A DNA stretch of 36,606 bases, taken from positions 1-36,606 of IMG/VR virus record IMGVR_UViG_3300020161_000625; one strand, given 5' to 3'. Below are positions 1 through 23,471 of this stretch, in pieces. Every line of letters starts with the position of its first letter. The stretch's first letter is position 1. The notes under the pieces are model-generated. The model worked only from the letters and a program-made list of their open reading frames with translations, ran no database searches and was not told where the DNA came from. Both the position numbers and the translations under genes were made by a program. The stretch is from a virus. Taxonomy: Duplodnaviria; Caudoviricetes.

Positions 1-3000
1 AACGCCGCTAAGTTCCTAAACGTCACGGTGGACCCGATTCTCCAGATGTCCACCGCCGCCCTGAAGCACGGCTACAAGGACGCCGCCTTCTTCGCTGGCC
101 TAGGGTACATGAACGACAGGGAGCGTGGCATGGTTGGAGGTGCCGCCATGGGCATGGTTTGGGGCGGATACAGCGGTGCCGTTCGTCATCTATGGAGCAA
201 CATCAACGGCTTCGTACAGCACGATAGGTTCATCAAGGACTTTGACGAGCGTCTCCTCCCCAAGTTGGAACAAGGCTGGAGCCCAGATTTTGCCGCTTTC
301 GCACGCAAAGTCGTCGCCGACGCAGACCTAGGCAAGTCCAGCAAGACTTCTGCAAATGCTAGGATGGTCCTTCAGCAGATGCACCTCATGCTTGACGCCA
401 AGCAGAAGAAGCAGGTCATCGCAGGCACCCTCCCTGCACCAGAAATGGCAAAGGTCCTCGCCGCCCGTGGCGTCGACAACCCGATGCGTTACCTTGACCC
501 AAGTGCAAAAGGCCAGTTCAGCCTAGTGCGTGACACGAGCGGTAACATCATCCCGCTAATCTGGCTTAACCCGCAAAAGTACAGGCCTGCCGACTTCGGG
601 CACGAAGTCTTGTCCCACATGGCAATCTGGAATCTCCAGACCCGTGGGCAACTTGGCACGCATCTGATTGAGTTCTTTGGGATTAAGGAGAATGAAGGTG
701 CCATTACCGACGAGAAGATGACTGAGGTCGCTCTGCGTATGTCCCTTGAGGAGGCCCTCAACAGGAAGCAGAACATGACCATCGAGGAGGCAAGGCAGGT
801 CGCCAACGAAATCTTCAATGCAGACGCAGATACCGTAGGTAGCCGTAAATACTTTGAAAGAGCGATTAAGGAGTTCAGGTCTGCTACGAATTTCAACCAT
901 TTTCACCAGACTATCGACATTAACGGCGAGCAGGTTCCTGCCATCTACGCCTCGACTAGGGGTGTCAAGGGAGAGCGTCAGTCTCCCATCCAATACATCT
1001 TTGAGGAGTTCATTGGTAAGCATGCTGAAAACATGTTTATCCACACCAACCTTCAGGACCTCGTCCTTTCCGCAGAGGACAAGCCGCTCAGGATGTACTT
1101 TGAACGCAAGTACACCGAGCGTCTTGCGAGGAACCAGACCGAACTAGAACTTGCTGGCGTCATCGCTAAATACGGTGCACCCTTGACCAAGGACGGTAGG
1201 CCTACCATTCAAGCCATGATTTACGACGACGGCGTCTACTACAGACACCCCGCCATGGACAACGTCCTCAAGAACATGCTTGAGGCCGCTAGGTCCGTCA
1301 ACGATGGCCCCATCAGCAACCTTTCTCCCGAGATGCAATTGGCCGTCGCCAAGAAGCACCGCAAGGAGTTCCTTTTCAACATCCGTGGCAATGGTGCTAC
1401 GCTCAAGGGCGAGAAAGAACGCAATGAGATGTCAGCCAACAACGCCAAGGGTGCGTTTGAGGTCATCGACGCCCTGCCAGAAGAACTGAAGCCCAAGATT
1501 ACGGTAGATGAGCACGGCAATAGGTCCGCCGACGTCTACACCATGAAGGACGAGGTCATCGACGCCATGGTGGATGGAGGATTCTTGGACCCAGAGTCTG
1601 GCCGTGTGGCCAAGGTGTTCAGGGATACCTACATGCAGTACGAGTCCAGCGGTTTCGCCACTGGCAACCTCGTGTACGGCATCAACATCGGCGACAGCCA
1701 CCGCACCTCCGTCGGCAACCTGTTTAAGCGTATTTTCGGAGACGATGTGCCAGCCACAAACAGGGTGTTTGTCCCGTTTGAACTTAAGGTCTACCTCAGG
1801 ACTACGGACGGAAACGGCAAGAACCTCAGGGCACCTAGGGGTGGCTTTACGGCCACCGTGATGGACTACACGGCCATTCACCGCAGGCAAATCAAGACGT
1901 GGTCCCGTGCTGACGTAAAAGCCCTCTGGTCTAATATCGGAGAGTTCAACGCAGACTTCCATGAGTATCTGTTGAACTTCCTGAAAGACCCTGCCAACCG
2001 TGTCGACTCTGCCACGTTGTTTAGGCCTAAGTTCGGAGCGGACGCAGAAAAGGTCAGGGACATCATGTATGAGACCTTCGGTGCCAGCAAGAGGAAGGAC
2101 GAGTCGTATTTCAACGCCCCTAGGGAAGGCTATTTCAGCAGTCACGAGAATCCGAACTTCCCGATTCATTCGCTGAAACTGGAGAACCTTATCGGCGTCG
2201 AGCGAATCTCTGCCGCACCGTTCCCCTACCACCATGGCAGGTCCTACGAGCCGCTTAGGCGTAACAAGTCCGTCGCTGGCTTTGAGGAAATCTCGGCCAA
2301 CATGTTCGGCAACGGGCAGGGCTATAGGGTAATCCGTGAACGCAACAGCGAGTCCAGCGGATGGAAGGTGTTCAGCCCATTTGGAGGCCTTGTTGGAAGG
2401 TACAGGGACAAGGACAAGGCGTTCAAGGCGGCTCAGAAGCACCTTCGCAAGGACATGGACCCAGCCGACGTGCTGGCTCTCCCCTCCGACGAAGAGTGGT
2501 CCCAGATGAACAGGCCAGAAAGGCTGAAGAGGATTCAGGAAGACAAGTTAAACTATCAGCAGTCCAAGATTCTCAAGGCAAGGGGGAGCCTGTCCGTGGA
2601 TGGCGTGAGGGAAGGCGGCATCGGCATTACCCTTCAACGTAACGAAGCCTCCGATTTCGTGAGGAAGATTTCCGACCCTAGGATGATTGGCAGGGGAATG
2701 AGCCTTCTTGATTTTTACCCTGAAAGCGAAAAGCAAAAGTTCAGGCAATACGCCATCAGCAACGGACTGCCTGAGAGATTCTTTGAAAGCATCCGAATCA
2801 GGCAAGACGACATGCCGTCCGACAAGAGGAAGGTGGACTTTGCCTTGCTTGGCTCGCCAATGGAAATCACTGAGCACAAGTCCGACTCACTCCCCACCAT
2901 CACTTTTGACAAGGCGTTCTTTGACGTCCTGTCGCAGGAAAAGGCCAATGAGGTGTTCACTGGCCTTATGGAGTCTCACCTGTCCAAGGTTGCACGCTCC

Positions 3001-6000
3001 TATCATGACGGAAACCTTTTAACCTCGTCGGTAGTCAAGAGGGTGGACAGTCTCTCCATCCAGAACAGGCCGATTCAGCAGTCTATCGCAGAGGGGTGGA
3101 AGTTGCTTTCTGACGCAAGGCTTGAGGGTAAGGAACTCCCGAAGGAATACAAAGCGGCATACGACGAAGTCGTCGCCAGACACGAGTGGTGCGAGGACGC
3201 AAAACAGCCTAGGTGGGAGCAAATTAGGAATTCTTCCAGCAACACCGAAATCAAGAAACTTTTTGATGAAGCATTGCTTGAGGGCAACAGTTCCGTCAGG
3301 CAAGCAGCCGTCAACAAACTGGACAATGTGTTTGGCGGAATTTGGAACAAGGCTGAGCACAAGGCCGTAATCGAATCACTCAGGCAACTTAACTTGGTCG
3401 ATAAGGAAGGCGTAGCCGTGCCCGTTGTGAACGCAGGAGGCCTCACCGTATTCATGTCTCCGAACATGGATTACTCTAGGAATGCTAGGGTTTTCAGGAA
3501 ATTCTTAGAGTCGCTTCCCGAATCCAAGAGGGCTGATTTCCTTTGGGTGGCCAAGGAGGCATTCAATCACACCCTCCATCAGCAATACAGCGACGTCCAG
3601 TACTCAGCCTTGGGAATCGACTCCTCTGGAATGCTGGATGTTGGAGCAAATCCGAACGTGCGGACTGGCGGAAGGCAGGTCATGCCAGAGATTGAGCCGC
3701 TTGCTGGAGCGGCCAGAAGGTCTAACTTTGTCTCTGTCAGGTACGAAGGCGACGCAAGTCAGTTGGTGACTGGAGTCGGTATTGTTTACAAGGTTTACAA
3801 TCTCAAGAGGGATTCAGTCAAGGGAGGCACAGAAGTCCCTACTGGAACCTTGCAAAACAATGCCAAGGCGTTGGCCCCGTTGCCCCCGTTCTCAGCACTG
3901 CCCAATACCATCGTCGACTATCTGACTGGTGCTAGGTTCGATAAATCCGAACTCCCAAACGTCGCCAGAGACCTTTCTTACATGCTGGTCTCTTCCGTCA
4001 AGGAGAGCGACCAGAACGTCGTAAAGGTATGGTCCCAATTCGCAAAAGACAATAGCCCGATGACCCTCGCACGGGGGCTATTCGACATTGCCTTGGATTC
4101 TGGCAATCAGGCTAGTTTTGAAATGGCCGTGTCGTTCAGGAAGTTGGCAATGGCCGCAGACGAAAACATGGCAAGGTCTAGGTTTGCTTCTAGGGGTTAT
4201 GATGCGAACCACCCCATGTATCAAGCCGAGTTACAGGCCGCACCCATGCGTTATTGGCATGAGGCTGTCGCAGACCACAATACGGATGCGGCCTCCCTTT
4301 GGGATGTCGGCGGAGAGAAGACTCTCATCGAGTTGCATTACGAATATGGCACCTCGTCCGAGTTCCACAGGCTGTTCGGTTACAATGCCGAAGCCCTGAC
4401 GAAACGTGTCGGAGCAAGCAGGGCTCGCCAGAAGAAGTTCCACGCCGCCGCAGAACAGACCTACAAGAGGAGTTTCTCCATGGGTGGCGTTGATGACCTC
4501 AGTCCCAGCAGGCGTGAAGAGGTCATTCGTTCTGGTTTGGCCAAGGAGATTAAGTTCGGCGGAAAGAACCTGCTCGTCTTTGAGTTCTCCGACGCAGACG
4601 CTTACCTCGACCTGTCTTCCGTACAGAACAAGCCCCACTTGTTGCCTTTCGCTGGCATGCCCGACGCAGAGCAGGCCTTCTCTGATTACGCATTCGAGGT
4701 GAAGCGTAGAGCGGCTGACCCGAAGTCCGAAAAGTACATCCCCTTCCACAAGCAAATCGGGAAAGACACCACCCTAGGAAAGGTCTTCGGCCACGAGACC
4801 ATGTACTACTACTACCCCGAAATGCGGGATGTCAGGGTACGATGGGTCGATGGTCATGGTGGCTACGCCTCTACCCTGCCCGACGGCGAACACATTATCG
4901 AACTTGGCATCAGGTCTTTCGCCAACTCGGAACTGAACATGAAGAACGACCCAGAAGGTCTTATCTTCAGCGACCCTCAGTCCGCCACCGCCAAGCATAT
5001 CGCCCAGAACCCGCTTGCGTCCATCATCCTGCATGAGGCACAGCACGTGCTCCAGTACAGGGCCAACATGGACAGCGAACATGGCCATTTTAACCAACTG
5101 AACAGGGAGATTACCATTGGTCACTTTGCCAACCTTCTTGGCCTGAGGACTAACTTCGCCGACGGCGAGGCCATTGGCAAGGCCATGAAGTTCAACTCCA
5201 TCTGGTCTGACGCAGACATCACCGCTACCAAGGACATCAACACTCTGGCCAGCAGGATTGCACTGGCCAAGGAATCCCCCGTCTTCAGGGAACTTAGCGG
5301 AAACGCAAGGCCCCTGCTTAAGACAGCCGTCCGCAACCTATCGGCTTTCGTGGCCGCTGAGGTTGATGCTGGCAGGATGGACGAATCCCTCTCTCGCAGG
5401 ATGCTTGCCCTAGATAGGGCTCAGGACGGCGTGCAGAATGTCCATGACGCTCTTTCCACGTACACGGAAATGATGGCGGTAAGGGAGGAACTCAGGAGCA
5501 AGTACCCGAGTTATTCCGCAAACATGCACTTCGACGTGGACTTCAGGGCGGCTACCTCTGCCCTTGGCCTCGTCAGGAGCGTGGTGGCCATCGAAAAAGC
5601 CACGCCTCAACAGCGTAAGTTGCTTATTAGGCAGGCGTTTGATGAGTTCATTGACTTGGATTACATCATGGCCCCCTCCGAAAGAATGGCCCGTGAGACC
5701 GAGAACAGGCGAATGCTCAGTCAGGAGGAACTCGCAAAGACTCCTAGGACCTATACCACGGACGCCCTGCCTCAGGGTTCTGTCCTTGGCATCATTCAAA
5801 GGGCCATGGATTCGTCCACGGTGGAAACGACAAAAGGCCTGATGGAAAAACAGACCGCCTCCCTTGACGCATTTGAAAAGGACGGGTATGTGAGCCCCAT
5901 TAAGACGGTCATGATGTCCATCGGCGGCATCGAAGGCAATGCCACCGCAGACAACACTGCGTTCACGTTGCTCGGCAAGATGTCGCTGGCTAGGTTCTTC

Positions 6001-9000
6001 CTTTCAAAGGCCAGCACCGAATACACCAACATCAGGAGGTTCTTCGTCCAGCAGAAGGGCTGGGAGGTAGTCGACGGCAAGATGACGCTGGTCACTGGCA
6101 ACTACGTGGTCTCTGGAGATTTTGATTCAGCAGTCAGGTCATTGGCCAAGAAGTTCAGGCCCGATTCCGTGGAAGAAGGTGAGCGTACCGCCTACGCTCT
6201 TGGCGGCATTGCCAAGGAAAGCGGAACCTACACCATTGCAGACATTGCTGAAATCGCAGGAATCAAGATTGAGTCTGAAGACATCCTGAGCCTCGGCAAT
6301 TCCGTCATGGATAAGGTCGCCAGCGATGAATTTCCGCCCGTATTCACGGTCAAGGAAATCAAGGGGTTGCTTGGTGACTACAATCAGGAATCGGCGTCCG
6401 TCGTCCTGCTTGACTACGTCGTCGAGAGGATGAACCCAGACAGGGTGCTCACGAAGAACGACCTGCTTAACATCATGGCGTTCAACCATTCCGACATGGA
6501 GATGCTTTACAACGTGTCCGAGATGAACATCGGCACAAACAGGGCAAAACAAGTCACTGGAAGGCCAGTCACGAAGGAGATGAAGATGAGGGTTCTCAAA
6601 CTTTACCCTCAGCAAGTCAGGAGCAAGATTGTCAGGATTCTTGAAGCGTCTCACGATGGCAACCACGGCAGGCCGTTCTATGGCCGTGGCAAAGACTACA
6701 AGTACGGAAGGTTTAAGGTACATGGAGGACAAATCACTTTCGAGGCACCTCATTTCAATGATGCGTTGTCGGCTGGAATTCCGCCTGCGGACGTAGCCGC
6801 ATTCAGGGAGAGGCTGGCTAAGGGAGTAAGCCAGAGAATCGTCCAGCACAGCGTCAACATGACGAAGAACGAGGCTTATGAAATCGCCGCAAAGATGAAC
6901 GACAGGATGGTCAGGCTTTCCATCCTGATGGAGCCTGTCATGGAAAAGGCCTATGAGTTCGTAGTCCAGCAGAACAACAGCAGTCCAGAAAGGGCCAGAA
7001 TTCTGTGGATGTCCATGATGGAGGACGTCGAAATCGCCGCCCTTAGGATTGCCTTCTCCGACCAGTACTCTGGACAGAAAGCAAACACCATGGACATCTA
7101 CGCTAGGGTTGGCGGGATGGAAGGCACGGTCAACGCCACCGAGCAGGCCGCACGTGGCCTCCAGAGAGTCTTCGGCGAAACCTCGCCAGCGGCTAAACTT
7201 AGGGAATCTGGCGGCATGAACCAAAGGGGTCGAAGCACGACCCACCCAGTCAGCGGACTCATGCCGTCACTGCATATGCTACATGGCAACTTCTTGTTTG
7301 GTAGCGTTCCAGCGGAAGGATTTGCAAGAGTGGAGTCAGGCGTAACCGTAGCCCCCGCTCAAGCCATGCACCTCAAGGAGAGGAAGTATCTTGGCATCGT
7401 CTCCGAGGCCAACATGTCCAATCAAGACACTGGCGGTGGCCTTACTGACTACCTCACTGGAGCCCAGCACGCCCTGACCGAGCAGTTCAAATACGTCCAT
7501 GGCAACTGGAGCGACGGCGACATGGGTGGCGTCATGGGCAGAATGCGTGGCTACGTCGAGGCTGTCTCCAAGAGGGCCGAAAACACGGCGGACATGAAAG
7601 AAAGGCTTTTGAGGGTCCAGACTGGCCTCAGGATGAATGAAAGCAGACAAAACCTCATTGCGGGAGAATGGCAGGGCGAGCAAATTTTCAAGAGAGTGGA
7701 CGCCCTGATGGCGGATGGCATGTCCCAAGACCAAGCGTTTGCCAGCCTTCTGAACGAACTCGACAGGAGAATCGAGATGGCGAAAGCCGACGAAGCGGAC
7801 CTCGCCGACATCTTGACGATGCAGTTGGACTCAGTGTCCTTATTTGCGGCCAACCATGGTGCGGTGATAGCGGACAAGAACGGCATGCCTAGGCACCGTG
7901 GCGGAGACGAAGCCCCGATTGAGGTAATGACCCCTCATAGGTTCGTCATGAACTCTTCAGTTCAGGCGGCTGGAACCTCAGCAATCCAAATCAGGGACAA
8001 GACCTTCGTAGATGTCGACCTGTCCCTTGCCGAGCCAGACCAGCCTACCTCCGTCGTCGTTCCTGCGATTGGCGTCGAGCAAGGCATGCCGTCCGCCGTG
8101 CAGAAGCAGATGAACATGACGGCACACGCCATCGAGGGCGTGATTACTGGACTTATCGGCTCCGCCGTGAAGCGGGACGAGCAAATGGTCCTGTCTCCGC
8201 TCAGGCAAAACCCCTTGATGCTTGGTTATCTTGAAAGGCTGAATCCAGAAAATCAGGTAGCCCAAGGTGATGGAGCCGAAATGACCACTAACGCTTACTC
8301 CGTTATCGGCGGTCAGATGTACGCAAGCCACAACACGTTCGTGTCATACCATGACATGATGACGGCTGGAAGCCGTGACCTGCTCAGGTTCGCCACGGAT
8401 AACCTTCGTGACCAAATCAACACGGACTACCAGACGGGTGGCATCTTCGGCAGTCCTGCAATGACCCGAAACGCCTTCCTAAGCGGTAATAGGCTGAATC
8501 ACGGCGTCCTTGGCCTGATGATTGCTCCTTACCTGCTGGCACATGATTCGCTCGGCTTCCCAGTCACCTCGGGCGAAAACATCTTGCACAGGTCTCGTGG
8601 CATCAGGACCGAAAAGTTCCTTGAATTGGTCGAGATGGCCAAGGAGGCCGACATGCGTGACCAGACCAAAGCCGCCGCCTTCAACTCAAAACTCACCGAG
8701 TGGATTGGCGGAATGGATGCTGGTTACCTACAGCGTCTTCTCTATGAGTGCTCTAGTGCCTCCGTAATCGACGGCGTCGTCCTCAGGATGAACATGCTCC
8801 AGATGCACGTCTTGGCCTCGGAGCACCCGACTAGGGCTGACAGGCTGAACAAGGCCAATGAAATGGGTGCCATCCATGGATTTGACGACTTTTTTGGCGA
8901 CAGTGGGTTGTACACAAGCGACGGGCTCAAGGGCAAGCACCCTGAAGTCAATCGCTACATGCACGCCAGAATCAAGGAGTCGTCCCTGAACCCCGACATG

Positions 9001-12000
9001 TGGCGGGGCGTGTTCTTCGGCCTAGCCGCCGCAAAGGAAATCGAGACCCGCAGGCCCAGCCTTCACCCCTATGTGGGGCACGGCAAGGTCAGGAACAGGT
9101 CAAAGGTGTACATGCAGGGCGAAGAGACGCTGGTTTATGGAAGGCCGATGCCTTCCCATAGGAGAAGCACTTCCGACGGCCTCGACGTGGATTCATTCCC
9201 TGTCGATAGGTACGACTCTGAGTCTGGCTTCGGCGGTGCGTATGGCACGACGAACAAGCGTAAGAGCATCGCCCAGACCGACATATTCGGCCTTGTGGCA
9301 GGCAATGAAAGCACGAGAACTCACCTACAGAGTGAGACCCCCGTCAGCCTGTTCGATGCCATCGGACACCATGTAGACTCCGTCCGTCAGGCGATGCCGA
9401 TAGACGTAGAAGGAACCTCGTCTGGAGTTAAGGACGCTTGGTATACGACAGACGTCAGCGGTAGTGTCATAACCCCCTTCACGGTAGGGACGGGCGACAG
9501 GACGTCCAATGTCACGGTGCAGACCCGCAAGCACCCGATTGGCGTCGTATCTAGGCGTAAATTACTTGTGAACAGGCTTGCCGCCGCCGCAGAGCAACTT
9601 GGCTCTGCCGAGGTTTCCGTACAGCCAGCCCGATTCACCTCCTCGAAGCGTGTTCAAGCCACGTTCAAGGGAATTTCCACCAAGGACAGGAGGGCCGAGA
9701 TGTTCTACGAGCAGGACAATGTGGCCATCGCCTTCAGCGGACAGTCCTTTGTTTCCGCAAGGTATTCGGAGAGGGACAGGCCCAGCCTTGGGTTTGCATG
9801 GAAGCGTCTCGAAGACGGACGCATCATGCTGAACATCTCGCCAGATACCAACATTGGCGGCTATCTGGACCTCACGAACGGCACCGAGTACAACACCCCG
9901 CTAGGGTTTTCGCATAGGCGTACGCTGGGATGGGACGTCGAATCTGGCATCCTGACCCCCATGTCTCCTCTGGCGATAATCAGGAGGTTCGCCTCGATTA
10001 GGGACAACAACCCTGTCGCAAGCCGTGCGGCCTCGCACATGGATTTCATCGACCCAATGGTAAGGGCTCAGTACGAGGCCAGTGCCAAGGCTACCGCACA
10101 GCGTGTCTATGGAGGCTCTAACATCAAGAGCATGTCGAAGCAGTTACTCTCCAAATACGGCGGCAAGGGAGATGCTATTTATGACGCTTACCAGAGAATC
10201 ATGAGCGGCGACAGGGTCATGGACTTTGACGACTTCACCAATGAAGACGCCAAGATTGCTAGGGTTCTTGCCATGGCAGAATTCTCCTCCATGGCCAGCC
10301 CTGAGGACGGATATGTCTCTGTCATACTCCCCGCTAACGCCACAATGGCGGACATTCAGCATGCGTTCTTCACTCAGGTAGCACACAACGGTCTCCTTCT
10401 TACCAGCGAACGATATGGCCAGAACCAGAAGAACGGAACGTTCAGAAGGGGCGGCTCTGGCTTGCCAGCGGACGGAAGCCCGCACCTGAACGGTTTTGCC
10501 ACCACGAGCGAGATTGCGTCAGTCAAGTCGGCTATCGACAACTATCTCGCCATCAGAATCGACAATAGGGCCGCAACGAAGGCACGGCCTTCCGATTTCG
10601 GCTATGCGGATACTGGTGCACAGAAGGGCACTTCGACGACCACACAGAGCATCCAGATTTCAGCCCAAAGGTATGGCCTTCTCATGCCGTCAGTGTTTGC
10701 AGACTTGGGTAAGTTGCATGAACGACTGACGTCTTCGGAGGGCGGATACTTTATGCCCGACGTCGAAAGGTCCATTGCACTCAACGGAGACAGGTCCGCA
10801 GTCATCGACCTTATCATGCCCAACTCCCCGCACCTGCAAAGGTATGCTTGGGACGCACAGGGCAAGGCCAACGTCTCTATCATCAGGAAAAGCGACAAGA
10901 GTGGATACCTCGTCGGCCACGACGTCGTCAGCGGCGTCGACAAGGCAGGCAACCCGATTAAGACCCGAAAGGTCTCCTCGTTCAGGACCGAAAGCGAAGC
11001 AAAAGCCCACGCAGACAGGGTTTCTCAGGGAGGAATCGAAGCGGAAATTCCTTCAATCTTGTTCAGGGAGGGCCAATTCAGGCTGGAAGACATCGACCCT
11101 TCCCTTGCCCACAGCCGCACAAGCGGCAAGGCTGACGTCAACGCAGGCCTCAAGTTCAACCCAGAGTTCGTCTCTGACGTTGCGGAGACTTACGACGGCA
11201 ATGAGAAGAACATCTTCACAGCCGATGGCACCTACTTCGTGGGCAACGTCGACAAGACGTTTGCAAGCCGTGCTGAGGCTAAGGCCGCTCAGGAAATGCT
11301 CCTTAGGACTGAAGCCATCACTGGCAAGGCACCGTCTAGGGACAGGATTAACCTGTCGGTGGGCGATGTCGGCGTGTATGAGCATGACATCCGCCGTGGA
11401 TTGCAGTTCGCAGTCGGAGGTTCTTACATCCAGTTCGCCCCCAAGGCACTGAGCATCCTCAGGACGGCCATGGTTCCGATGATGGAGCGTAACAAATCTG
11501 GTGCACTCAAGAAGGTCAAGAAAGCGGTCGACATTGCGACTGGCAACGAATGGTACGAGATGTTCATGGAGAATCAGGTGTCCAAGGCCGAGATGCGTGT
11601 CTTGGGTCTGGCCGAGTTCCTCTACGACCACAAGGAGCACAAGATTACCAAGCAGGAAGTCGCCAAGTTCATCTGGGCCATGTACCCGACCACTGGACGC
11701 CTCAATCACGAAAAACTACAGACGCCCTATGTGGGCAATGTGACCTCCCCTACCGTCGCCATCAGGTCCGCCGCACACAGGCTTCTGGCCGAACGCAACA
11801 GGCACTTGAAGACTATTGAGGCCGCAATCGAATCTGCACCAGAGGACCAGAAGGGCGAGATGGTCGCCTATCTGGCCAACATCCGCAAGATGCACGATGA
11901 TGCTCTCAAGTCTGCACTCGAGCAATTCTACGAAAAGGACAGGGCTGAGGCGATTGGTTCGAGGCCTGACCTTCTTGAAAACGCATCCGACATCAGCAGG

Positions 12001-15000
12001 GATGCCCTGCCAAAGCGTCAAACCGTAGACATGATGCTTAACGATTTTAGGAACTTCGACGCCATCACTGAGCCAGTCATGGCAACGTACAGGCACCTGT
12101 TCAATGACGCCTTTGCTAGGGCTAGGCTGGAGGCATCCGCCCGTCTCTCAGGATTCGACCTAGCCATCGCCGATTTTAGGACCTCGGACACCACATTGAA
12201 CGAGATTTCAAACTGGGGTCTGGCGATGAACACGTCTTATCATGGCTCTAGGATTGAGCCTCCGCCCATGAGACAGGTCACTGGCAAGGGCGTTCAGAAC
12301 CAAGTGACGCAGGCCGACGCATCTGCGTACGGACTTCAGCACGTCGACTCCGTCCCTGATTATGTCGGATACACCAGCGGCATCGGCTCCTACCGATGGG
12401 ATACCTTGTATACGGACTTGGAAATCCAAAAGGGCGAAAACTACGTCCGTAGCCTCAAGGATATGGCCAACCTCGAGTCCGACCCAGCCAAGAAAGAGGC
12501 CCTGTTGCGACAGCACAAGTCTGCTGAGCGTATCATGTCGGTCAGGAAATCTGCGAAGTCGGCCACAAGGAACAGCGGCCATAAGAACACCCCGACTGGC
12601 ACCATGCAACTTGGCCATGCACGCCACAGCGACGTCATCGTGACGGCGTATCATCGTGCCAACGCACCCATCGCAGAGGTCGCAAGTTCGCTGAAACTCA
12701 GCCGTGATACCATCGCAGTGCTTGGCATCGAGGAACTTCAGTCGGACCCATACCAAGGCTCCACCTTCGGCCCTAAGCAAAACGCCATGCTCGGCTCCAC
12801 ATTCGAGCAAGTCGAAGCCACGTCCCTAGTAAGTGAGTTCAGGCTGGTGGAACAGAAAATCGCCGACAAGGAGAACGCTAAGGCCAACATCTCCGCACCG
12901 CTTGCGTACCTCACCCACAGCACCAAGCAAAAACACAGAGACGCACTGTATAACTTCATCGCAAGGTACGAATGGGACAACGGAACTCCGCTGTTCAGGT
13001 ATCTGATTGCAAAAGATTACCTTAGCCAAAACAACGATACCTCGGTCACTTTCGACCACGGGGTTCGCCACAAGATAAGCAAGGAAGTTCAGGAACAGTA
13101 CGGCATAAAGGAAGATTACGTGCCAGAAGTCGTGTTCGACTTAAACTATGACGGAGGCGTGCACATGATTCTGTTTGAGAAGATTCATGAGGACTCGCAG
13201 GGCAACATGTCTCCGATAGAGTCAGACCTGTATTCCCTGCTCTACGGATACGGCAACAACGAGCACGCTGGACTTGTCGGAACCTCTACGAGAGCGATGT
13301 TCAGGTATTCAAGCAACACTAACCCGCATGGGTTGGCCACGCTTGTTGCAACTGTCGGCCTGCAATTCAACAAGGAGTTCATGTCTAAAATAGACGAACT
13401 CGGCCAGTACTATGAGTTGGACATGGATAGCGTTGAGAGGCCTCCCGTAGACTACGACAAGGTGGCGATGGAAAGCCTGCTAGACTTTAGGCGTAGGGTC
13501 GAGAAGGCCACTCCCGATTCACTGCCTAGCGGTCACCCAATGCGTGCAAATCATATGCTTTTCAAGCAGTGGAAGTCCACAACCCTGAGAGCCGTCAGAT
13601 ACCTTGAACTCGCTTACTACGAAGAAGGCTCCCAAATCGTTGACTTCAAGAACAAGCGTACCTCGCCGCATGTGAACAGGGGTGAATACCACACCGCCGA
13701 TACGCCTGAACTCATGGGAAGCAAGATGCCCGTCATCCTTTCTGTTGCCCGAATCAATGAATACGTTTCTTCGGCAGCATCCTACAGTAAGGAAAAGGTT
13801 ACCATCGCCCAAGCCGCTCAGAACGCCAAGAAGATACTCGACAGAATCAATGCGGGGGTGGGGCATAGATTCCTTGAACTCAGGCCTGTGCATCAGGTTG
13901 CCTTCGACCTCAGGTTGCGTGCCCAGATTCTAGGCATGGAGCCGTCTGCTTTCGTCGACCACTTGGACAGGACGAATTACCCAGACAGCGACTGGCCTAC
14001 TGGCTCGGTGACCAAGGAAAGGGCTGAAATCATGCGACTGACGTTGACCGAACCAGACAAAGTCACCGCCGAACAATTAGAACAACTTGACGAATCAGGC
14101 CACAAGTTGCTCAGGGTCACCGACGTCGACTTGGATTCGACCAGCGGATACGCATTGTCGAGGTCTAGGGTCTCCCAGCCTTCGCATGCTAGGACTATGC
14201 TTGGACGCATCTTCGAGAACAACGCCCCAGCCATCATCAATACGTACCTTGGCCACACGCCAGACCCTGAACTGGACGGGCTGAAAGCAAGGTACAACGA
14301 ACTCAAGGCCAAGTTGGGCGACTCTATCGCAGGTGAGTTTGATTACCCAGACACTATCCCGCTAGGCGAAGACAATGCCTACCGTGGCGTCATGACCAAT
14401 TGGTACGCCATGAGGGCACTCCAGTCCAGAAAGGACGCACTTGTCGTCATGGACGCACGTCACCACAGGGCACGCTACTCGTCTAACAGCAACTTCGTCA
14501 CCCTGTATAACCTCGGCGGCGGCATACTCGCACCTATTCATACTGGTAGCATGAAGAAGCGTCAGATACTCGCTGTCGGGTATATGCTTCATGAAGCCAA
14601 GAAGCAAAAGACACACGGCGGCTTTATCGAGGCCCTGCATGCTGGTCAGTTCCCTGATGCCTTCTTGTCTGGTCAGGCATCTATGGAATGGAACGGCGTG
14701 AACAACAACTTCAAGACTCACATGAGGCTTGCGGCCAATGAAATCGTGGCCCAGATGCCCGAACTCACTAGGGACTCGAACACCATGCTTATCAACGCCG
14801 TGGATACCTTGATGGACTTGGTGCTCCTCGGCGACAACAGGTTTGGAAACGACGAAATCAACAACTTGAACAAACTCATCGCCTCTGTCCGCTCTGGCAG
14901 GATGACAAAGGAAAGGGCCATCCAAGCAATCGAAGGCATGACCGACGGCAAGGACATCGCCAAGCGTGTCTTCACGCACTTTGAGAAGCCTCAGGGCGTC

Positions 15001-15912
15001 ATCATGAACGTCCCCATCGGACGCACGCATGGCTACGCCACCAACTACGGTGCACCCCTGTGGCACAACAAGTTGTATTACTCTGGCATGCAGGACACCC
15101 TTATCAATCAGGTGTCCCACGACGCCTTTGAAATTCCTGACGTCAGCATGCGTGACGGAAAGTACGTCGTCACGGACAAGAAGACGGGCAAGGTAATCGC
15201 CGAGGGCATCTCGTCGTTCGACGAAGCACAGGAGCGTGCGGCACAGAGTGCCAAGTACCTCGGTGCGGTCCCCATCGTCTCGAACTTCCTCAAGACGTTC
15301 GGCAAGATGGGGGGCTACGCCATGGAGGGCTTCATGATGGCCACTAACAAGAATGAGTCCCAGACGTCTCAGGTCCTCGTGGACACCATGAAGCATGACC
15401 TGATTGCACCTTACACTGGGATGAGCAAGACTGCTGGCATGGCTGGTGCGGCTGGCATGACCCAAAAGATGGGCAGTTCTTTCGGCAACTTCCCGATGCC
15501 TGATGCCAATAGCATGCCCGTCGAAGGCACCAGTGCTGTCAATCGAATCGAGGCTAGGCACGGGGTGTTCGGCCCAGACATGTCCGAAGACACAGTCAAC
15601 ACCGCCCTTGAGCACGCCACGGCCTTGCACGCCATGGGAGTCAGGGCTGGAGCCGACTCCGAGCAGATTGCCGCTGGCTTGCACAGGCTCGGAGGCTTCA
15701 CTGGCCCGATGCTTGTCATCAGACCCAAGTTCCCTACGGCCAACCACATGGCCGAAGCCAAGAAGGCCATCGTCCAAGGCATCCCCTTCATGTCCGTCAG
15801 CGGCGTGGACAAGCCTCAGGTAATGGCCAAGGAAGCCGCCAAGATGTACAAGTGGTACGCAAAGGGTGCCAAGAACCAGAACGAATATGAATCCAGAACC
15901 CAACTTAACTAA
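1..15912 (+). CDS. Giant virion-associated polyvalent protein (5'-truncated, >5,300 aa) with zincin-like metallopeptidase motifs and an LPD23-like region; probable internal/ejection protein
   Basis: Frame is open from base 1. Motifs: HEVLSH (601-618) with downstream EEF; FEFSD...LGKVFGHETMYYYYPEMRDVRV...ILHEAQHVLQ (HExxH at 5032-5046); GH...LGHAR...IEELQSD (12727-12747). Lies just before the lysis genes. Confidence 0.75.
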   Translation, partial: NAAKFLNVTVDPILQMSTAALKHGYKDAAFFAGLGYMNDRERGMVGGAAMGMVWGGYSGAVRHLWSNINGFVQHDRFIKDFDERLLPKLEQGWSPDFAAFARKVVADADLGKSSKTSANARMVLQQMHLMLDAKQKKQVIAGTLPAPEMAKVLAARGVDNPMRYLDPSAKGQFSLVRDTSGNIIPLIWLNPQKYRPADFGHEVLSHMAIWNLQTRGQLGTHLIEFFGIKENEGAITDEKMTEVALRMSLEEALNRKQNMTIEEARQVANEIFNADADTVGSRKYFERAIKEFRSATNFNHFHQTIDINGEQVPAIYASTRGVKGERQSPIQYIFEEFIGKHAENMFIHTNLQDLVLSAEDKPLRMYFERKYTERLARNQTELELAGVIAKYGAPLTKDGRPTIQAMIYDDGVYYRHPAMDNVLKNMLEAARSVNDGPISNLSPEMQLAVAKKHRKEFLFNIRGNGATLKGEKERNEMSANNAKGAFEVIDALPEELKPKITVDEHGNRSADVYTMKDEVIDAMVDGGFLDPESGRVAKVFRDTYMQYESSGFATGNLVYGINIGDSHRTSVGNLFKRIFGDDVPATNRVFVPFELKVYLRTTDGNGKNLRAPRGGFTATVMDYTAIHRRQIKTWSRADVKALWSNIGEFNADFHEYLLNFLKDPANRVDSATLFRPKFGADAEKVRDIMYETFGASKRKDESYFNAPREGYFSSHENPNFPIHSLKLENLIGVERISAAPFPYHHGRSYEPLRRNKSVAGFEEISANMFGNGQGYRVIRERNSESSGWKVFSPFGGLVGRYRDKDKAFKAAQKHLRKDMDPADVLALPSDEEWSQMNRPERLKRIQEDKLNYQQSKILKARGSLSVDGVREGGIGITLQRNEASDFVRKISDPRMIGRGMSLLDFYPESEKQKFRQYAISNGLPERFFESIRIRQDDMPSDKRKVDFALLGSPMEITEHKSDSLPTITFDKAFFDVLSQEKANEVFTGLMESHLSKVARSYHDGNLLTSSVVKRVDSLSIQNRPIQQSIAEGWKLLSDARLEGKELPKEYKAAYDEVVARHEWCEDAKQPRWEQIRNSSSNTEIKKLFDEALLEGNSSVRQAAVNKLDNVFGGIWNKAEHKAVIESLRQLNLVDKEGVAVPVVNAGGLTVFMSPNMDYSRNARVFRKFLESLPESKRADFLWVAKEAFNHTLHQQYSDVQYSALGIDSSGMLDVGANPNVRTGGRQVMPEIEPLAGAARRSNFVSVRYEGDASQLVTGVGIVYKVYNLKRDSVKGGTEVPTGTLQNNAKALAPLPPFSALPNTIVDYLTGARFDKSELPNVARDLSYMLVSSVKESDQNVVKVWSQFAKDNSPMTLARGLFDIALDSGNQASFEMAVSFRKLAMAADENMARSRFASRGYDANHPMYQAELQAAPMRYWHEAVADHNTDAASLWDVGGEKTLIELHYEYGTSSEFHRLFGYNAEALTKRVGASRARQKKFHAAAEQTYKRSFSMGGVDDLSPSRREEVIRSGLAKEIKFGGKNLLVFEFSDADAYLDLSSVQNKPHLLPFAGMPDAEQAFSDYAFEVKRRAADPKSEKYIPFHKQIGKDTTLGKVFGHETMYYYYPEMRDVRVRWVDGHGGYASTLPDGEHIIELGIRSFANSELNMKNDPEGLIFSDPQSATAKHIAQNPLASIILHEAQHVLQYRANMDSEHGHFNQLNREITIGHFANLLGLRTNFADGEAIGKAMKFNSIWSDADITATKDINTLASRIALAKESPVFRELSGNARPLLKTAVRNLSAFVAAEVDAGRMDESLSRRMLALDRAQDGVQNVHDALSTYTEMMAVREELRSKYPSYSANMHFDVDFRAATSALGLVRSVVAIEKATPQQRKLLIRQAFDEFIDLDYIMAPSERMARETENRRMLSQEELAKTPRTYTTDALPQGSVLGIIQRAMDSSTVETTKGLMEKQTASLDAFEKDGYVSPIKTVMMSIGGIEGNATADNTAFTLLGKMSLARFFLSKASTEYTNIRRFFVQQKGWEVVDGKMTLVTGNYVVSGDFDSAVRSLAKKFRPDSVEEGERTAYALGGIAKESGTYTIADIAEIAGIKIESEDILSLGNSVMDKVASDEFPPVFTVKEIKGLLGDYNQESASVVLLDYVVERMNPDRVLTKNDLLNIMAFNHSDMEMLYNVSEMNIGTNRAKQVTGRPVTKEMKMRVLKLYPQQVRSKIVRILEASHDGNHGRPFYGRGKDYKYGRFKVHGGQITFEAPHFNDALSAGIPPADVAAFRERLAKGVSQRIVQHSVNMTKNEAYEIAAKMNDRMVRLSILMEPVMEKAYEFVVQQNNSSPERARILWMSMMEDVEIAALRIAFSDQYSGQKANTMDIYARVGGMEGTVNATEQAARGLQRVFGETSPAAKLRESGGMNQRGRSTTHPVSGLMPSLHMLHGNFLFGSVPAEGFARVESGVTVAPAQAMHLKERKYLGIVSEANMSNQDTGGGLTDYLTGAQHALTEQFKYVHGNWSDGDMGGVMGRMRGYVEAVSKRAENTADMKERLLRVQTGLRMNESRQNLIAGEWQGEQIFKRVDALMADGMSQDQAFASLLNELDRRIEMAKADEADLADILTMQLDSVSLFAANHGAVIADKNGMPRHRGGDEAPIEVMTPHRFVMNSSVQAAGTSAIQIRDKTFVDVDLSLAEPDQPTSVVVPAIGVEQGMPSAVQKQMNMTAHAIEGVITGLIGSAVKRDEQMVLSPLRQNPLMLGYLERLNPENQVAQGDGAEMTTNAYSVIGGQMYASHNTFVSYHDMMTAGSRDLLRFATDNLRDQINTDYQTGGIFGSPAMTRNAFLSGNRLNHGVLGLMIAPYLLAHDSLGFPVTSGENILHRSRGIRTEKFLELVEMAKEADMRDQTKAAAFNSKLTEWIGGMDAGYLQRLLYECSSASVIDGVVLRMNMLQMHVLASEHPTRADRLNKANEMGAIHGFDDFFGDSGLYTSDGLKGKHPEVNRYMHARIKESSLNPDMWRGVFFGLAAAKEIETRRPSLHPYVGHGKVRNRSKVYMQGEETLVYGRPMPSHRRSTSDGLDVDSFPVDRYDSESGFGGAYGTTNKRKSIAQTDIFGLVAGNESTRTHLQSETPVSLFDAIGHHVDSVRQAMPIDVEGTSSGVKDAWYTTDVSGSVITPFTVGTGDRTSNVTVQTRKHPIGVVSRRKLLVNRLAAAAEQLGSAEVSVQPARFTSSKRVQATFKGISTKDRRAEMFYEQDNVAIAFSGQSFVSARYSERDRPSLGFAWKRLEDGRIMLNISPDTNIGGYLDLTNGTEYNTPLGFSHRRTLGWDVESGILTPMSPLAIIRRFASIRDNNPVASRAASHMDFIDPMVRAQYEASAKATAQRVYGGSNIKSMSKQLLSKYGGKGDAIYDAYQRIMSGDRVMDFDDFTNEDAKIARVLAMAEFSSMASPEDGYVSVILPANATMADIQHAFFTQVAHNGLLLTSERYGQNQKNGTFRRGGSGLPADGSPHLNGFATTSEIASVKSAIDNYLAIRIDNRAATKARPSDFGYADTGAQKGTSTTTQSIQISAQRYGLLMPSVFADLGKLHERLTSSEGGYFMPDVERSIALNGDRSAVIDLIMPNSPHLQRYAWDAQGKANVSIIRKSDKSGYLVGHDVVSGVDKAGNPIKTRKVSSFRTESEAKAHADRVSQGGIEAEIPSILFREGQFRLEDIDPSLAHSRTSGKADVNAGLKFNPEFVSDVAETYDGNEKNIFTADGTYFVGNVDKTFASRAEAKAAQEMLLRTEAITGKAPSRDRINLSVGDVGVYEHDIRRGLQFAVGGSYIQFAPKALSILRTAMVPMMERNKSGALKKVKKAVDIATGNEWYEMFMENQVSKAEMRVLGLAEFLYDHKEHKITKQEVAKFIWAMYPTTGRLNHEKLQTPYVGNVTSPTVAIRSAAHRLLAERNRHLKTIEAAIESAPEDQKGEMVAYLANIRKMHDDALKSALEQFYEKDRAEAIGSRPDLLENASDISRDALPKRQTVDMMLNDFRNFDAITEPVMATYRHLFNDAFARARLEASARLSGFDLAIADFRTSDTTLNEISNWGLAMNTSYHGSRIEPPPMRQVTGKGVQNQVTQADASAYGLQHVDSVPDYVGYTSGIGSYRWDTLYTDLEIQKGENYVRSLKDMANLESDPAKKEALLRQHKSAERIMSVRKSAKSATRNSGHKNTPTGTMQLGHARHSDVIVTAYHRANAPIAEVASSLKLSRDTIAVLGIEELQSDPYQGSTFGPKQNAMLGSTFEQVEATSLVSEFRLVEQKIADKENAKANISAPLAYLTHSTKQKHRDALYNFIARYEWDNGTPLFRYLIAKDYLSQNNDTSVTFDHGVRHKISKEVQEQYGIKEDYVPEVVFDLNYDGGVHMILFEKIHEDSQGNMSPIESDLYSLLYGYGNNEHAGLVGTSTRAMFRYSSNTNPHGLATLVATVGLQFNKEFMSKIDELGQYYELDMDSVERPPVDYDKVAMESLLDFRRRVEKATPDSLPSGHPMRANHMLFKQWKSTTLRAVRYLELAYYEEGSQIVDFKNKRTSPHVNRGEYHTADTPELMGSKMPVILSVARINEYVSSAASYSKEKVTIAQAAQNAKKILDRINAGVGHRFLELRPVHQVAFDLRLRAQILGMEPSAFVDHLDRTNYPDSDWPTGSVTKERAEIMRLTLTEPDKVTAEQLEQLDESGHKLLRVTDVDLDSTSGYALSRSRVSQPSHARTMLGRIFENNAPAIINTYLGHTPDPELDGLKARYNELKAKLGDSIAGEFDYPDTIPLGEDNAYRGVMTNWYAMRALQSRKDALVVMDARHHRARYSSNSNFVTLYNLGGGILAPIHTGSMKKRQILAVGYMLHEAKKQKTHGGFIEALHAGQFPDAFLSGQASMEWNGVNNNFKTHMRLAANEIVAQMPELTRDSNTMLINAVDTLMDLVLLGDNRFGNDEINNLNKLIASVRSGRMTKERAIQAIEGMTDGKDIAKRVFTHFEKPQGVIMNVPIGRTHGYATNYGAPLWHNKLYYSGMQDTLINQVSHDAFEIPDVSMRDGKYVVTDKKTGKVIAEGISSFDEAQERAAQSAKYLGAVPIVSNFLKTFGKMGGYAMEGFMMATNKNESQTSQVLVDTMKHDLIAPYTGMSKTAGMAGAAGMTQKMGSSFGNFPMPDANSMPVEGTSAVNRIEARHGVFGPDMSEDTVNTALEHATALHAMGVRAGADSEQIAAGLHRLGGFTGPMLVIRPKFPTANHMAEAKKAIVQGIPFMSVSGVDKPQVMAKEAAKMYKWYAKGAKNQNEYESRTQLN

Positions 15913-17483: not shown

Positions 17484-17512
17484 GTATGTGCGTGTTCTGG
17501 GTGGAAAGGTTT

Positions 17513-17584
17513 TGGCCCTACTAGGAATCGAACCTAGATTAAGCGTTTAGGAAACGCCTGTCCTATCCGTTGAACGATAAGGCC
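17513..17584 (-). tRNA. tRNA-Arg(CCU), CCA not encoded
   Basis: GGCCTTA-TC-GTTC AACGGATA GGAC-A-GGCGT TT CCT AA ACGCT-TAAT-CTAGG TTCGATT CCTAG-TAGGGCC-A forms a complete cloverleaf. Confidence 0.95.
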
Positions 17585-17592
17585 AAAGTTGG

Positions 17593-22742: not shown

Positions 22743-22841
22743 TTACCAGATGAGGCCGACGGTCACGCAGAGGGCTACGAGAATAGCCGTGTCGATTACG
22801 AGGGCGACGACCCAGAGGGTGCCGATTTGTTGTTTGTTCAT
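22743..22841 (-). CDS. Small single-pass membrane peptide (32 aa)
   Basis: MNKQQIGTLWVVALVIDTAILVALCVTVGLIW after an ACACATAC-ATG leader. Confidence 0.6.
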   Translation of the reverse strand: MNKQQIGTLWVVALVIDTAILVALCVTVGLIW

Positions 22842-22864
22842 GTATGTGTTGGGTTGGAAAGTTG

Positions 22865-22927
22865 CAGGCTCGGCTATGCTAGACCGACTTACGCCCCGAC
22901 GTGTTCTCACGCACGTGAAGGGACCTG
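22865..22927 (-). ncRNA. Structured RNA Z1 (three-way junction), paralog of Z2
   Basis: CAGGT/GCCTG closing stem, CCCT/GGGG plus ACGTG/CACGT arm, CGTAAG junction, TCGG/CCGA hairpin; compensatory changes relative to Z2. Confidence 0.7.
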
Positions 22928-22933
22928 TGGTTA

Positions 22934-23001
22934 TTGAGGTTCGGCCAATGCCTAACCGACTTACGCTTGGACGTGCTACCATACACGTTTCAAGACCTCA
23001 A
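22934..23001 (-). ncRNA. Structured RNA Z2 (three-way junction), paralog of Z1
   Basis: TTGAGGT/ACCTCAA closing stem, CTTG/CAAG plus ACGTG/CACGT arm, CGTAAG junction, TCGG/CCGA hairpin. Confidence 0.7.
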
Positions 23002-23006
23002 ATTGA

Positions 23007-23082
23007 TAGGCCTGTAATGCCAGTGGGCGAGCGTTCCAAGGCTCTATAGTTGGGGAACTGCCCAGTCTGCAAGTGTGGCCTA
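23007..23082 (-). ncRNA. Structured RNA Y (long interrupted hairpin)
   Basis: TAGGCC/GGCCTA, TGC/GCA, TGGGC/GCCCA, GTTCC/GGAAC stems; bounded by the same CAATTT-type spacers as the tRNAs. Confidence 0.5.
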
Positions 23083-23089
23083 AATTGAA

Positions 23090-23166
23090 ACCCCAGCAGG
23101 AGGATTACTCCTGCCTTTTAGCACATGCCGACGGTAATGCGAGATACGTTACGGTTATGCGTGGGT
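23090..23166 (-). ncRNA. Structured RNA X (three-way junction)
   Basis: CCCA/TGGG closing stem, GCATA/TGTGC arm, TAAAAG junction, GCAGGAG/CTCCTGC hairpin; CAATT spacers on both sides. Confidence 0.5.
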
Positions 23167-23169
23167 AAT

Positions 23170-23243
23170 TGGTGGAGACTAAGGGAATCGAACCCTCATC
23201 ACACGGATGCCATCCGAGTGTACTGCCATTGTACTAAGTCCCC
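23170..23243 (-). tRNA. tRNA-Ala(GGC)
   Basis: GGGGACT...CTCGG AT GGC AT CCGTG...GAGGG TTCGATT CCCTT AGTCTCC ACCA; G3:U70, A73, A32-U38, encoded CCA. Confidence 0.95.
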
Positions 23244-23247
23244 AAAT

Positions 23248-23322
23248 TGGTGGAGGCTAGGGGAATCGAACCCCTACCGAGCGGATGCAAACCGCCCGTG
23301 CTACCATTATCACTAAGCCCCC
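23248..23322 (-). tRNA. tRNA-Ala(UGC)
   Basis: GGGGGCT...GGCGG TT TGC AT CCGCT...AGGGG TTCGATT CCCCT AGCCTCC ACCA; G3:U70, encoded CCA. Confidence 0.95.
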
Positions 23323-23326
23323 AAAT

Positions 23327-23401
23327 TGGTGGATGATTGGGGAATTGCACCCCTGTATGTGTCGTGGCCTCTAATGCCTGACATAGTCGCTAGACTCACC
23401 C
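23327..23401 (-). ncRNA. Non-canonical tRNA-Ala-like RNA resembling the tmRNA tRNA-like domain (75 nt)
   Basis: GGGTGA/TCATCC-ACCA acceptor with G3:U70 and A73; GGGG TGCAATT CCCC T-arm; no normal D arm (TCTAGCGAC); elongated central arm. Confidence 0.65.
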
Positions 23402-23405
23402 GTAG

Positions 23406-23420
23406 ATTGTTAAAGAACAT
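23406..23420 (-). promoter_or_regulatory. boxA-like antitermination element
   Basis: - strand ATGTTCTTTAACAAT versus the boxA consensus TGCTCTTTAACA, just upstream of the RNA array. Confidence 0.7.
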
Positions 23421-23443
23421 GGTGCGTTAATCACCATGCATTC

Positions 23444-23471
23444 AACATGACGTTATGTAGTCCTACGTCAA
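23444..23471 (-). promoter_or_regulatory. Probable sigma70-type promoter for the RNA array and early operon
   Basis: TTGACG-16 bp-CATGTT, followed by a CATGGTG/CACCATG hairpin and boxA. Confidence 0.45.

Follow-up and report, generated by a model that had tools for sequence, protein, structure and literature searches.

An alanine-marked RNA with a predicted linker-less cloverleaf plan at the head of a phage tRNA array

A 75-nt RNA gene upstream of two tRNA-Ala genes

What kind of RNA is encoded by the 75 nt that precede the tRNA genes of this virus, and what could such an RNA do? An earlier note had described the element as a tmRNA tRNA-like domain that lacks both a message and a D stem. The window, meaning the whole stretch of 36,606 bases that was analysed, is an entire virus record with an estimated genome completeness of 76%; the genomes of close relatives extend up to about 48–49 kb. 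Its genes include a terminase, an SU10-type capsid protein, RusA, ERF, an exonuclease VIII-like protein, replication genes and an ORF of 5,294 aa (28–15912), for which Pfam gave no match across residues 1–4,657 and which is likely a giant internal virion protein. A separate tRNA-Arg(CCU) follows the ERF gene (17512–17585, minus strand). The best matches of window proteins to cultured phages reach 31% for the terminase and 28% for the capsid protein. A search of GTDB genomes for a relative of the terminase found none. Ten genome matches to the pattern of the RNA family described below were tmRNA ends, tRNA pieces or chance matches, and no host could be drawn from them.

All letters listed for the element in the earlier note are present, on the minus strand. 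The acceptor reads GGGUGA/UCAUCC with a G3:U70 pair, a discriminator A and an encoded CCA, and the T arm combines a 4-bp GGGG/CCCC stem with a UGCAAUU loop. The RNA also holds the segment UCUAGCGAC, the complementary strands UAUG/CAUA and GGC/GCC, and the loop AUUAGAG. Neither ARAGORN nor Rfam detected it, with nothing in Rfam even at E≤10, and a BLAST search of the 75 nt against cultured phages gave no match. No description of such an RNA was found in a literature search, to which subscription papers were mostly inaccessible. Because the fold of the single sequence surpasses chance by no more than a modest margin (z = −1.95; 7 of 200 shuffles were as good), we searched for relatives.

The RNA heads a minus-strand tRNA array, 6 nt after a boxA-like motif, which we liken to the boxA of rRNA operons, and 4 nt before a canonical tRNA-Ala(UGC) gene (Table 1). 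The position as first unit after boxA, pointed out in the earlier note, holds here and in four other homologues, and does not extend to the remaining ones. A promoter scanner scored the minus-strand candidate at 23444–23471 below its threshold and did not list it, and a terminator was not found. Four sequencing runs, three probably DNA and one RNA, were compared, all as assembled contigs. A 216-nt contig from the RNA run covers 23186–23401 and ends exactly at G1; as contigs cannot show RNA ends and a single study is involved, we give this contig no weight.

Table 1. Positions of the RNA, its parts and the neighbouring features in the window
Feature	Position	Strand	Details
75-nt alanine-identity mini-cloverleaf RNA gene	23327..23401	minus	G1 = 23401, CCA end = 23327
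Acceptor 5' strand, nt 1–6	23396..23401	minus	G1-G2-G3 invariant, 13/13
Miniature D hairpin, nt 7–16	23386..23395	minus	G7-C16, U8-A15, C9-G14; 4-nt loop, elbow A11-G12
Long arm, nt 17–46	23356..23385	minus	UAUG/CAUA outer helix, internal loop, inner GGC/GCC stem
Arm terminal loop AUUAGAG	23369..23375	minus	not conserved in length or sequence
CGACAC motif, nt 38–43	23359..23364	minus	invariant; mostly unpaired in arm internal loop
T arm	23339..23353	minus	4-bp stem, UGCAAUU loop, G at tRNA position 55
Acceptor 3' strand	23327..23336	minus	with U70, A73, encoded CCA
tRNA-Ala(UGC)	23248..23322	minus	canonical, second array unit
tRNA-Ala(GGC)	23170..23243	minus	canonical, third array unit
boxA-like motif	23408..23419	minus	similar motifs in relatives
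Leader hairpin, 7 bp	23418..23438	minus	immediately 5' of boxA-like motif; read from sequence; kept in close relatives
Candidate promoter	23444..23471	minus	TTGACG, 16 nt, CATGTT; TTGAC recurs in relatives

Downstream of the tRNA genes lies a non-coding stretch (22860–23165, minus strand) with hairpin motifs common to the relatives; among them, a motif that includes GCGTAAGTCGG is present twice in similar form. Rfam gave no match of note to this stretch. Directly after the stretch, a hydrophobic ORF of about 32 codons (22744–22842, minus strand) is kept throughout the clade, in phages that carry the RNA as well as in those that lack it.

Conservation of the RNA within one phage clade

Exact patterns returned two near-identical copies of the RNA, and diverged copies were obtained from loci fetched through an upstream ORF of 159 aa (7 loci) and through the terminase (best 80 of 116). 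A pattern requiring the motif CGACAC, run on viral and metagenome contigs (38 loci each), gave further copies. The resulting family comprises 13 distinct sequences of 70–78 nt that are 47–99% identical; the CGACAC requirement played no part in finding eight of them and was used for the other five, whose flanking genes place them in the same phage group. Outside this group, the family model was run on 203 additional source loci; apart from the five members among them that were used in building it, nothing scored above 50 bits.

The alanine identity marks are strictly maintained. G1:C72, G2:C71, G3:U70 and A73 are invariant in all 13 homologues, pairs 4–6 covary, and the 3' end is CCA in 11 and UCA in 2. 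U70 has changed to C70 in none of the 13, although the neighbouring pairs turn over. G3:U70 and A73 are named as determinants for alanyl-tRNA synthetase (AlaRS) in the accessible portions of PMC3968760 and PMC9976931. The description of the element as a tRNA-like RNA with alanine identity marks and no message stands. With the helices pooled across the 13 homologues, 91% of cells are paired, compared with 76.5 ± 1.6% after shuffling (0 of 500 shuffles as high) and 45–57% in slid controls; the shuffle counts are not probabilities, because the homologues are related. By these sequence comparisons the 75-nt RNA is clearly non-random. The conservation of structure in related phages that the earlier note had called for is borne out, and its alternative of random decay from a normal tRNA does not agree with 13 homologues in which G3:U70, A73 and the T arm persist alongside compensatory changes.

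Contrary to what had been proposed, the D region is not stemless. In free folding, nt 7–9 pair with nt 14–16 (15–17 in the alignment), so that the first CGAC of the RNA forms the 3' strand of a covarying D hairpin of 2–3 bp, which abuts the acceptor stem without a linker. Within this hairpin 92% of cells are paired across the 13 homologues, compared with 79 ± 3% after shuffling and 6–47% in slid controls, and the alignment pair 8–16 is formed in 13/13 as CG, UA, AU or UG. Two limits apply to the D stem: position 7 can pair equally well in the acceptor or in the hairpin, and a lenient 2-bp hairpin test at position 8 is also passed by 6 of 19 phage mini-tmRNAs, the message-less tmRNAs compared below. 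The loop of the hairpin, 4–5 nt long, holds a purine-G throughout the family. Its purine covaries with position 55 of the T loop without exception (A/G in 10 homologues, G/U in 3), and the near-identical copies in L168 and L058 switch both positions together, which points to a maintained elbow. We take the contacts of this purine-G with the T loop to be those of the tRNA elbow, 18:55 and 19:56.

Among the best 80 of 116 terminase loci, 31 extend at least 5.4 kb upstream. Where the terminase is at least 86% identical, the slot is filled by an alanine-marked tRNA-like RNA in every one of the 12 covered relatives: eight are family members (66–85 bits on the family model), one is a related form in L030 (45 bits) and three are compact tRNA-Ala(UGC)-like genes (23–27 bits). 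At 79–83% terminase identity such an RNA occurs in 0 of 19 covered relatives. Of the seven loci fetched by the upstream ORF, six carry it, the exception being the close relative L018. Because L018 and all 19 of the more distant relatives do without it, the RNA is dispensable across the wider group. The ordinary tRNAs that flank it differ from phage to phage (Ala, His, Lys, Met, Phe, Tyr). Taken together, these RNAs form a real family under selection, which is uncatalogued and restricted to a single phage clade.

The three compact genes in this slot belong to sister phages with terminases 86–87% identical (L066:3810-3886, L069:2760-2836, L070:4839-4915). Their D arm is reduced and their anticodon stem is long and bulged; they carry A33, lack a variable loop and share the words GGCA and CGACAC with the family. 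In L069 the gene is called tRNA-Ala by ARAGORN. Other odd tRNA-like units, mostly missed by ARAGORN, occur in the arrays of relatives (L056, about 2870-2945; L058:4507-4579; L062, about 4340-4500; L069, about 2855-2930). By eye, alanine-marked RNAs of the same linker-less plan, with a mini D hairpin and an abutting arm but lacking CGACAC, were seen in L182, L195, L197 and L217 (each 1000-1070) and in L359:300-371; the flanks of these five loci have no match to this clade.

The long arm likewise starts without a linker, and only 1–2 nt separate it from the T stem. The first pair of its outer helix occurs as UA, CG, AU and GC across the homologues; in the automatic alignment, in which the short members are offset by one column, arm helix pairing is 72%. 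A decoding role for this arm was considered. According to the available text of PMC5389517, allo-tRNAs that combine G3:U70 with diverse anticodons insert alanine in E. coli. A non-canonical tRNA of this kind would place alanine at non-alanine codons, here Leu CUA as the earlier note had suggested, and the window copy does have a 7-nt loop with U33 and A37, while UU recurs in most arm loops of the family. However, the tip loop ranges from 7 to 10 nt in the eight long members, its triplet differs among lineages, and the UU stands at no fixed distance from the closing pair. Since loop length and sequence vary in this way, and since the five short members have a weak inner stem or none, CUA decoding is unsupported and a decoding tRNA seems highly improbable. 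The idea that the arm loops serve as bait for an anticodon nuclease was also considered and found weak, the recurrent UU having no fixed position.

The CGACAC motif of the arm behaves differently from the variable tip, being present in 8 of 8 members found without requiring it. A search of up to 1.2 kb to either side found no conserved RNA complement to it. One candidate RNA partner, some 500 nt upstream and thus around the upstream ORF, was dismissed, as it is present at only 6 of 14 family loci and absent from the window. Pairing of a 6-mer such as CGACAC with rRNA is expected by chance. The unpaired CGACA loop may instead be a docking site for a protein partner. In such a model the RNA would be a codon-independent alanine donor, whose partner on the CGACA loop plays an SmpB-like role and hands the alanyl-RNA either to stalled ribosomes or to a transferase outside the ribosome. 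Among the readings considered, only this one accounts for the invariant CGACA loop, and the invariant alanine marks, the variable tip and the missing RNA complement agree with it. Against it, the 159-aa upstream ORF has no family match and is also present in L018, which is without the RNA, and no aminoacyl-tRNA-using enzyme was recognised among the 31–32 ORFs scanned, so that we consider an alanine donor rather improbable. A more elaborate scheme, in which a mini-tmRNA or a tRNA-Ala was rebuilt into a chargeable mascRNA-like RNA whose CGACA partner would replace SmpB and deliver alanine to stalled ribosomes with neither codon reading nor degradation tagging, strikes us as a long shot.

Relation to tmRNA

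Message-less tmRNAs are on record. As far as the accessible text of PMC4131195 and PMC11915505 goes, they include that of phage DS6A (‘TLD only’), two Mallomonadaceae plastid genes and mitochondrial forms, and the 2025 database lists nine ‘standard, no CDS’ tmRNAs (PMC11915505). In the part of the 2014 paper available to us, ‘a similar molecule’ inhibits tmRNA, perhaps through SmpB titration (PMC4131195), and the corresponding part of the 2025 paper assigns tmRNA inhibition to the DS6A form (PMC11915505). The present RNA might then be a message-less tmRNA that has diverged yet can still bind and titrate the SmpB of the host, inhibiting trans-translation as is reported for DS6A-type forms. It shares with tmRNA the G3:U70 acceptor, A73, the position of the CCA and a T arm with a D-loop/T-loop elbow, whose purine-G comes early after the acceptor in both.

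The SmpB-binding site is where the likeness ends. The accessible sections of PMC8363625 describe SmpB contacts with tmRNA A15, U17, A334, C18 and G19, with A15 and U17 forming a pocket together with A334, and the tmRNA D loop has no stem according to the part of PMC3968760 at hand. For comparison we assembled phage mini-tmRNAs from pattern scans, in one of which 51 of 100 distinct sequences were TLD-like by our rule, together with that of DS6A (JN698994:28478-28560). In place of a stemless D loop the family has the covarying stem of 2–3 bp. The sequence at the place of the first CGAC is CGAC in only 2 of 13 members and UGAC, AGGC, AGUC or AGGU in the others, changing in step with the hairpin, and its GA is paired in the covarying stem. 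In tmRNA the D loop ends in UCGAC (A15, U17, C18, G19, A20), at a distance of a few nt from the elbow G; where the family keeps CGAC it sits directly after the elbow G, and equivalents of A15 and U17 are absent. An A334 equivalent is found in 3 of 13 members, paired there in the arm helix. The tmRNA junction before the T stem is a 3-nt GAC (G333, A334, C335); its GA occurs in 0 of 13 family members and in 18 of 19 mini-tmRNAs (the DS6A junction being CA), a contrast that is partly circular because the mini-tmRNA set was chosen as tmRNA-like. The second CGAC was tried as the end of a tmRNA D loop, with a C-G-closed tetraloop, and rejected; 6 of 13 members do not form the closing pair, and it is the long helix that covaries.

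Covariance models led to the same view. The alignment to tmRNA and mitochondrial tmRNA models proposed in the earlier note gave no match to the window RNA, neither with RF00023 at E≤10 nor with the mitochondrial and permuted models RF02544 and RF04321; the gene order is standard, 5' to 3'. On a model built from 18 mini-tmRNAs the window RNA scores 26.4 bits, below the 30.6 and 31.5 bits of the neighbouring tRNA-Ala genes. Across the family the range is 24–39 bits, no better than the 28–37 bits of tRNA-Ala genes, compared with 67–84 bits for seven held-out mini-tmRNAs, which are close relatives of the training set. We therefore do not file the RNA as a tmRNA domain, given the GA junction in none and CGAC in 2 of 13 members and model scores below those of its neighbours. 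As judged from its letters and profiles, the family is not a member of the tmRNA family.

Other observations keep a link to tmRNA in view. On the family model, mini-tmRNAs score 31–50 bits, somewhat above the 28–37 bits of tRNA-Ala genes, and RF00023 gives the L058 RNA 39 bits, a value inside the span of weak mini-tmRNAs. Among phage mini-tmRNAs, eroded D loops and UAC, AAC or CAC junctions are frequent, and the forms with degenerate D loops make up a continuum; the window copy can itself be read as CGAC...UAC, the full DS6A junction being CAC. At 24 of 57 loci, found with a pattern that forced the A/G55 elbow, an intact mini-tmRNA with this elbow closely precedes a terminase 33–38% identical to that of the window; this identity exceeds that of any cultured phage. 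From these findings descent from a mini-tmRNA is plausible, and the A/G55 forms beside the related terminase, together with the continuum of degenerate D loops, leave a residual tmRNA-like role conceivable. Weighed against the missing SmpB pocket, the paired CGAC and the low model scores, titration of SmpB by the present RNA is nevertheless unlikely. The other candidate for its ancestor is the compact tRNA-Ala(UGC) of the sister phages, which shares its slot and its GGCA and CGACAC words.

True message-less tmRNAs, 64–83 nt long and several of them above the RF00023 cut-off, are abundant in uncultured phages. Examples are L104:1486-1564, L110:1500-1563 and L138:976-1039, with many in L177–L233 and L245–L364; at L177, L179 and 22 more loci the A/G55-type mini-tmRNA lies a few hundred bases upstream of the 33–38% identical terminase. 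About 350 stretches are estimated to match one mini-tmRNA pattern, of which roughly half of the sampled distinct sequences are TLD-like. Message-less tmRNAs of uncultured phages thus go far beyond the nine sequences of the 2025 database.

Proposed function and comparison with known systems

Another account would be that the RNA, having arisen from a compact tRNA-Ala(UGC), is mainly a relic or a signal for processing, a landing pad for RNase P and RNase Z as in mascRNA, its alanine marks being merely inherited. The mascRNA-like plan and the compact genes in the same slot of the sister phages are consistent with this. However, U70 has become C70 in none of the 13 and A73 is kept in all of them, while neighbouring pairs turn over. 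In addition, the flanking tRNAs each carry their own processing signals, and the position of the RNA in the array varies. We regard a processing signal or relic as distinctly improbable.

We tentatively favour, short of an even chance, a non-decoding, alanylated tRNA mimic that acts as a decoy for host tRNA-handling proteins. The role was chosen by elimination, from what is observed of the RNA: its sequence and conservation, covarying helices and elbow, loss of the SmpB-site letters and a variable arm loop. A decoy is likelier than a stripped-down tmRNA because the RNA has neither a conserved anticodon nor the protein-docking site of tmRNA, and competition is the simplest role for an RNA that is kept chargeable but unable to decode. 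Of the roles suggested in the earlier note (titration of SmpB or EF-Tu, ribosome rescue or a decoy), the decoy is retained as the best reading, while its basis in a tmRNA domain is given up. In the proposed mechanism, the RNA would be transcribed with the tRNA array from the candidate promoter and probably cut out as a tRNA would be, presumably by RNase P. It would fold into an L shape as a linker-less mini-cloverleaf like mascRNA, and host AlaRS would likely load it with alanine through G3:U70 and A73. Presumably taking no part in decoding, it could compete for host proteins that read the acceptor and elbow half of tRNA. The least certain step is the target, which may be EF-Tu or a host defence enzyme that attacks tRNA; phage tRNAs counter tRNA-cutting defences, as stated in the accessible text of PMC11555353.

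These findings add an uncatalogued architecture to phage tRNA mimicry, in which alanine identity is placed on a linker-less, mascRNA-like cloverleaf. One phage clade keeps such an alanine-marked RNA while the ordinary tRNAs around it are swapped, and the standard finders ARAGORN and Rfam overlook the entire family. They also indicate that G3:U70 and the lack of an anticodon are insufficient to make an RNA a tmRNA fragment. Together with true mini-tmRNAs, the family provides a natural panel of RNAs that either have or lack the SmpB site, for studying how alanine-marked, non-decoding RNAs benefit phages. Message-less tmRNAs such as that of phage DS6A were already known; what is new is a structural variant among the alanine-marked tRNA mimics of phages.

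One close comparison is with the mini-tmRNAs of DS6A and other phages, which are also phage-encoded and combine G3:U70, A73, a T arm and one long arm with no message. They differ in that their D loop is unpaired and ends in (U)CGAC and that a 3-nt junction carries the A334 equivalent (19/19), whereas in the present family the mini D stem is paired, the junction measures 1–2 nt and the conserved CGACA sits inside the arm. Canonical tRNAs (RF00005) have a U8/N9 linker, a D stem of 3–4 bp and a 7-nt anticodon loop with a conserved anticodon; the present RNA has no ARAGORN or RF00005 match, and its loop is variable with no conserved anticodon. Compact phage tRNA-Ala genes share the alanine acceptor, the reduced D arm and little or no variable loop, but keep an alanine anticodon (UGC or GGC), of which none is conserved in the family. 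Further examples, 71–73 nt long with UGC or GGC and a strongly reduced D region, occur in other phages (L304, L311, L316, L275).

The G3:U70 allo-tRNAs, which come from metagenomes, resemble this RNA in that alanine identity is decoupled from the anticodon; in the available description (PMC5389517) they differ by an 8/4 or 9/3 acceptor branch, a long D stem and a variable arm. YrlA (RF02553) gave no match in scans of the window RNA or six family members, and its tRNA-like domain is permuted, while the present RNA ends in an acceptor with CCA. In overall plan the RNA resembles mascRNA and menRNA (RF01684), which, in the accessible text of PMC11693755, lack the tRNA linker residues, their crystal-defined layout having an acceptor of nt 1–7 and D hairpins at nt 8–18 and 8–17; mascRNA is described there as not aminoacylated, partly because of its shape. 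Compared by secondary structure, both sides have a linker-less four-way junction, a small D hairpin at about nt 8, an arm that abuts the T arm and a D-loop G that contacts the T loop. As RF01684 does not match the element, the likeness is an analogy only. mascRNA and menRNA are vertebrate RNAs of 57–58 nt that come from MALAT1/NEAT1-type precursors, are not aminoacylated and have a short perfect arm, whereas the present RNA carries the marks of alanine identity and an encoded CCA, its bulged arm holds an invariant motif, and its context is a phage.
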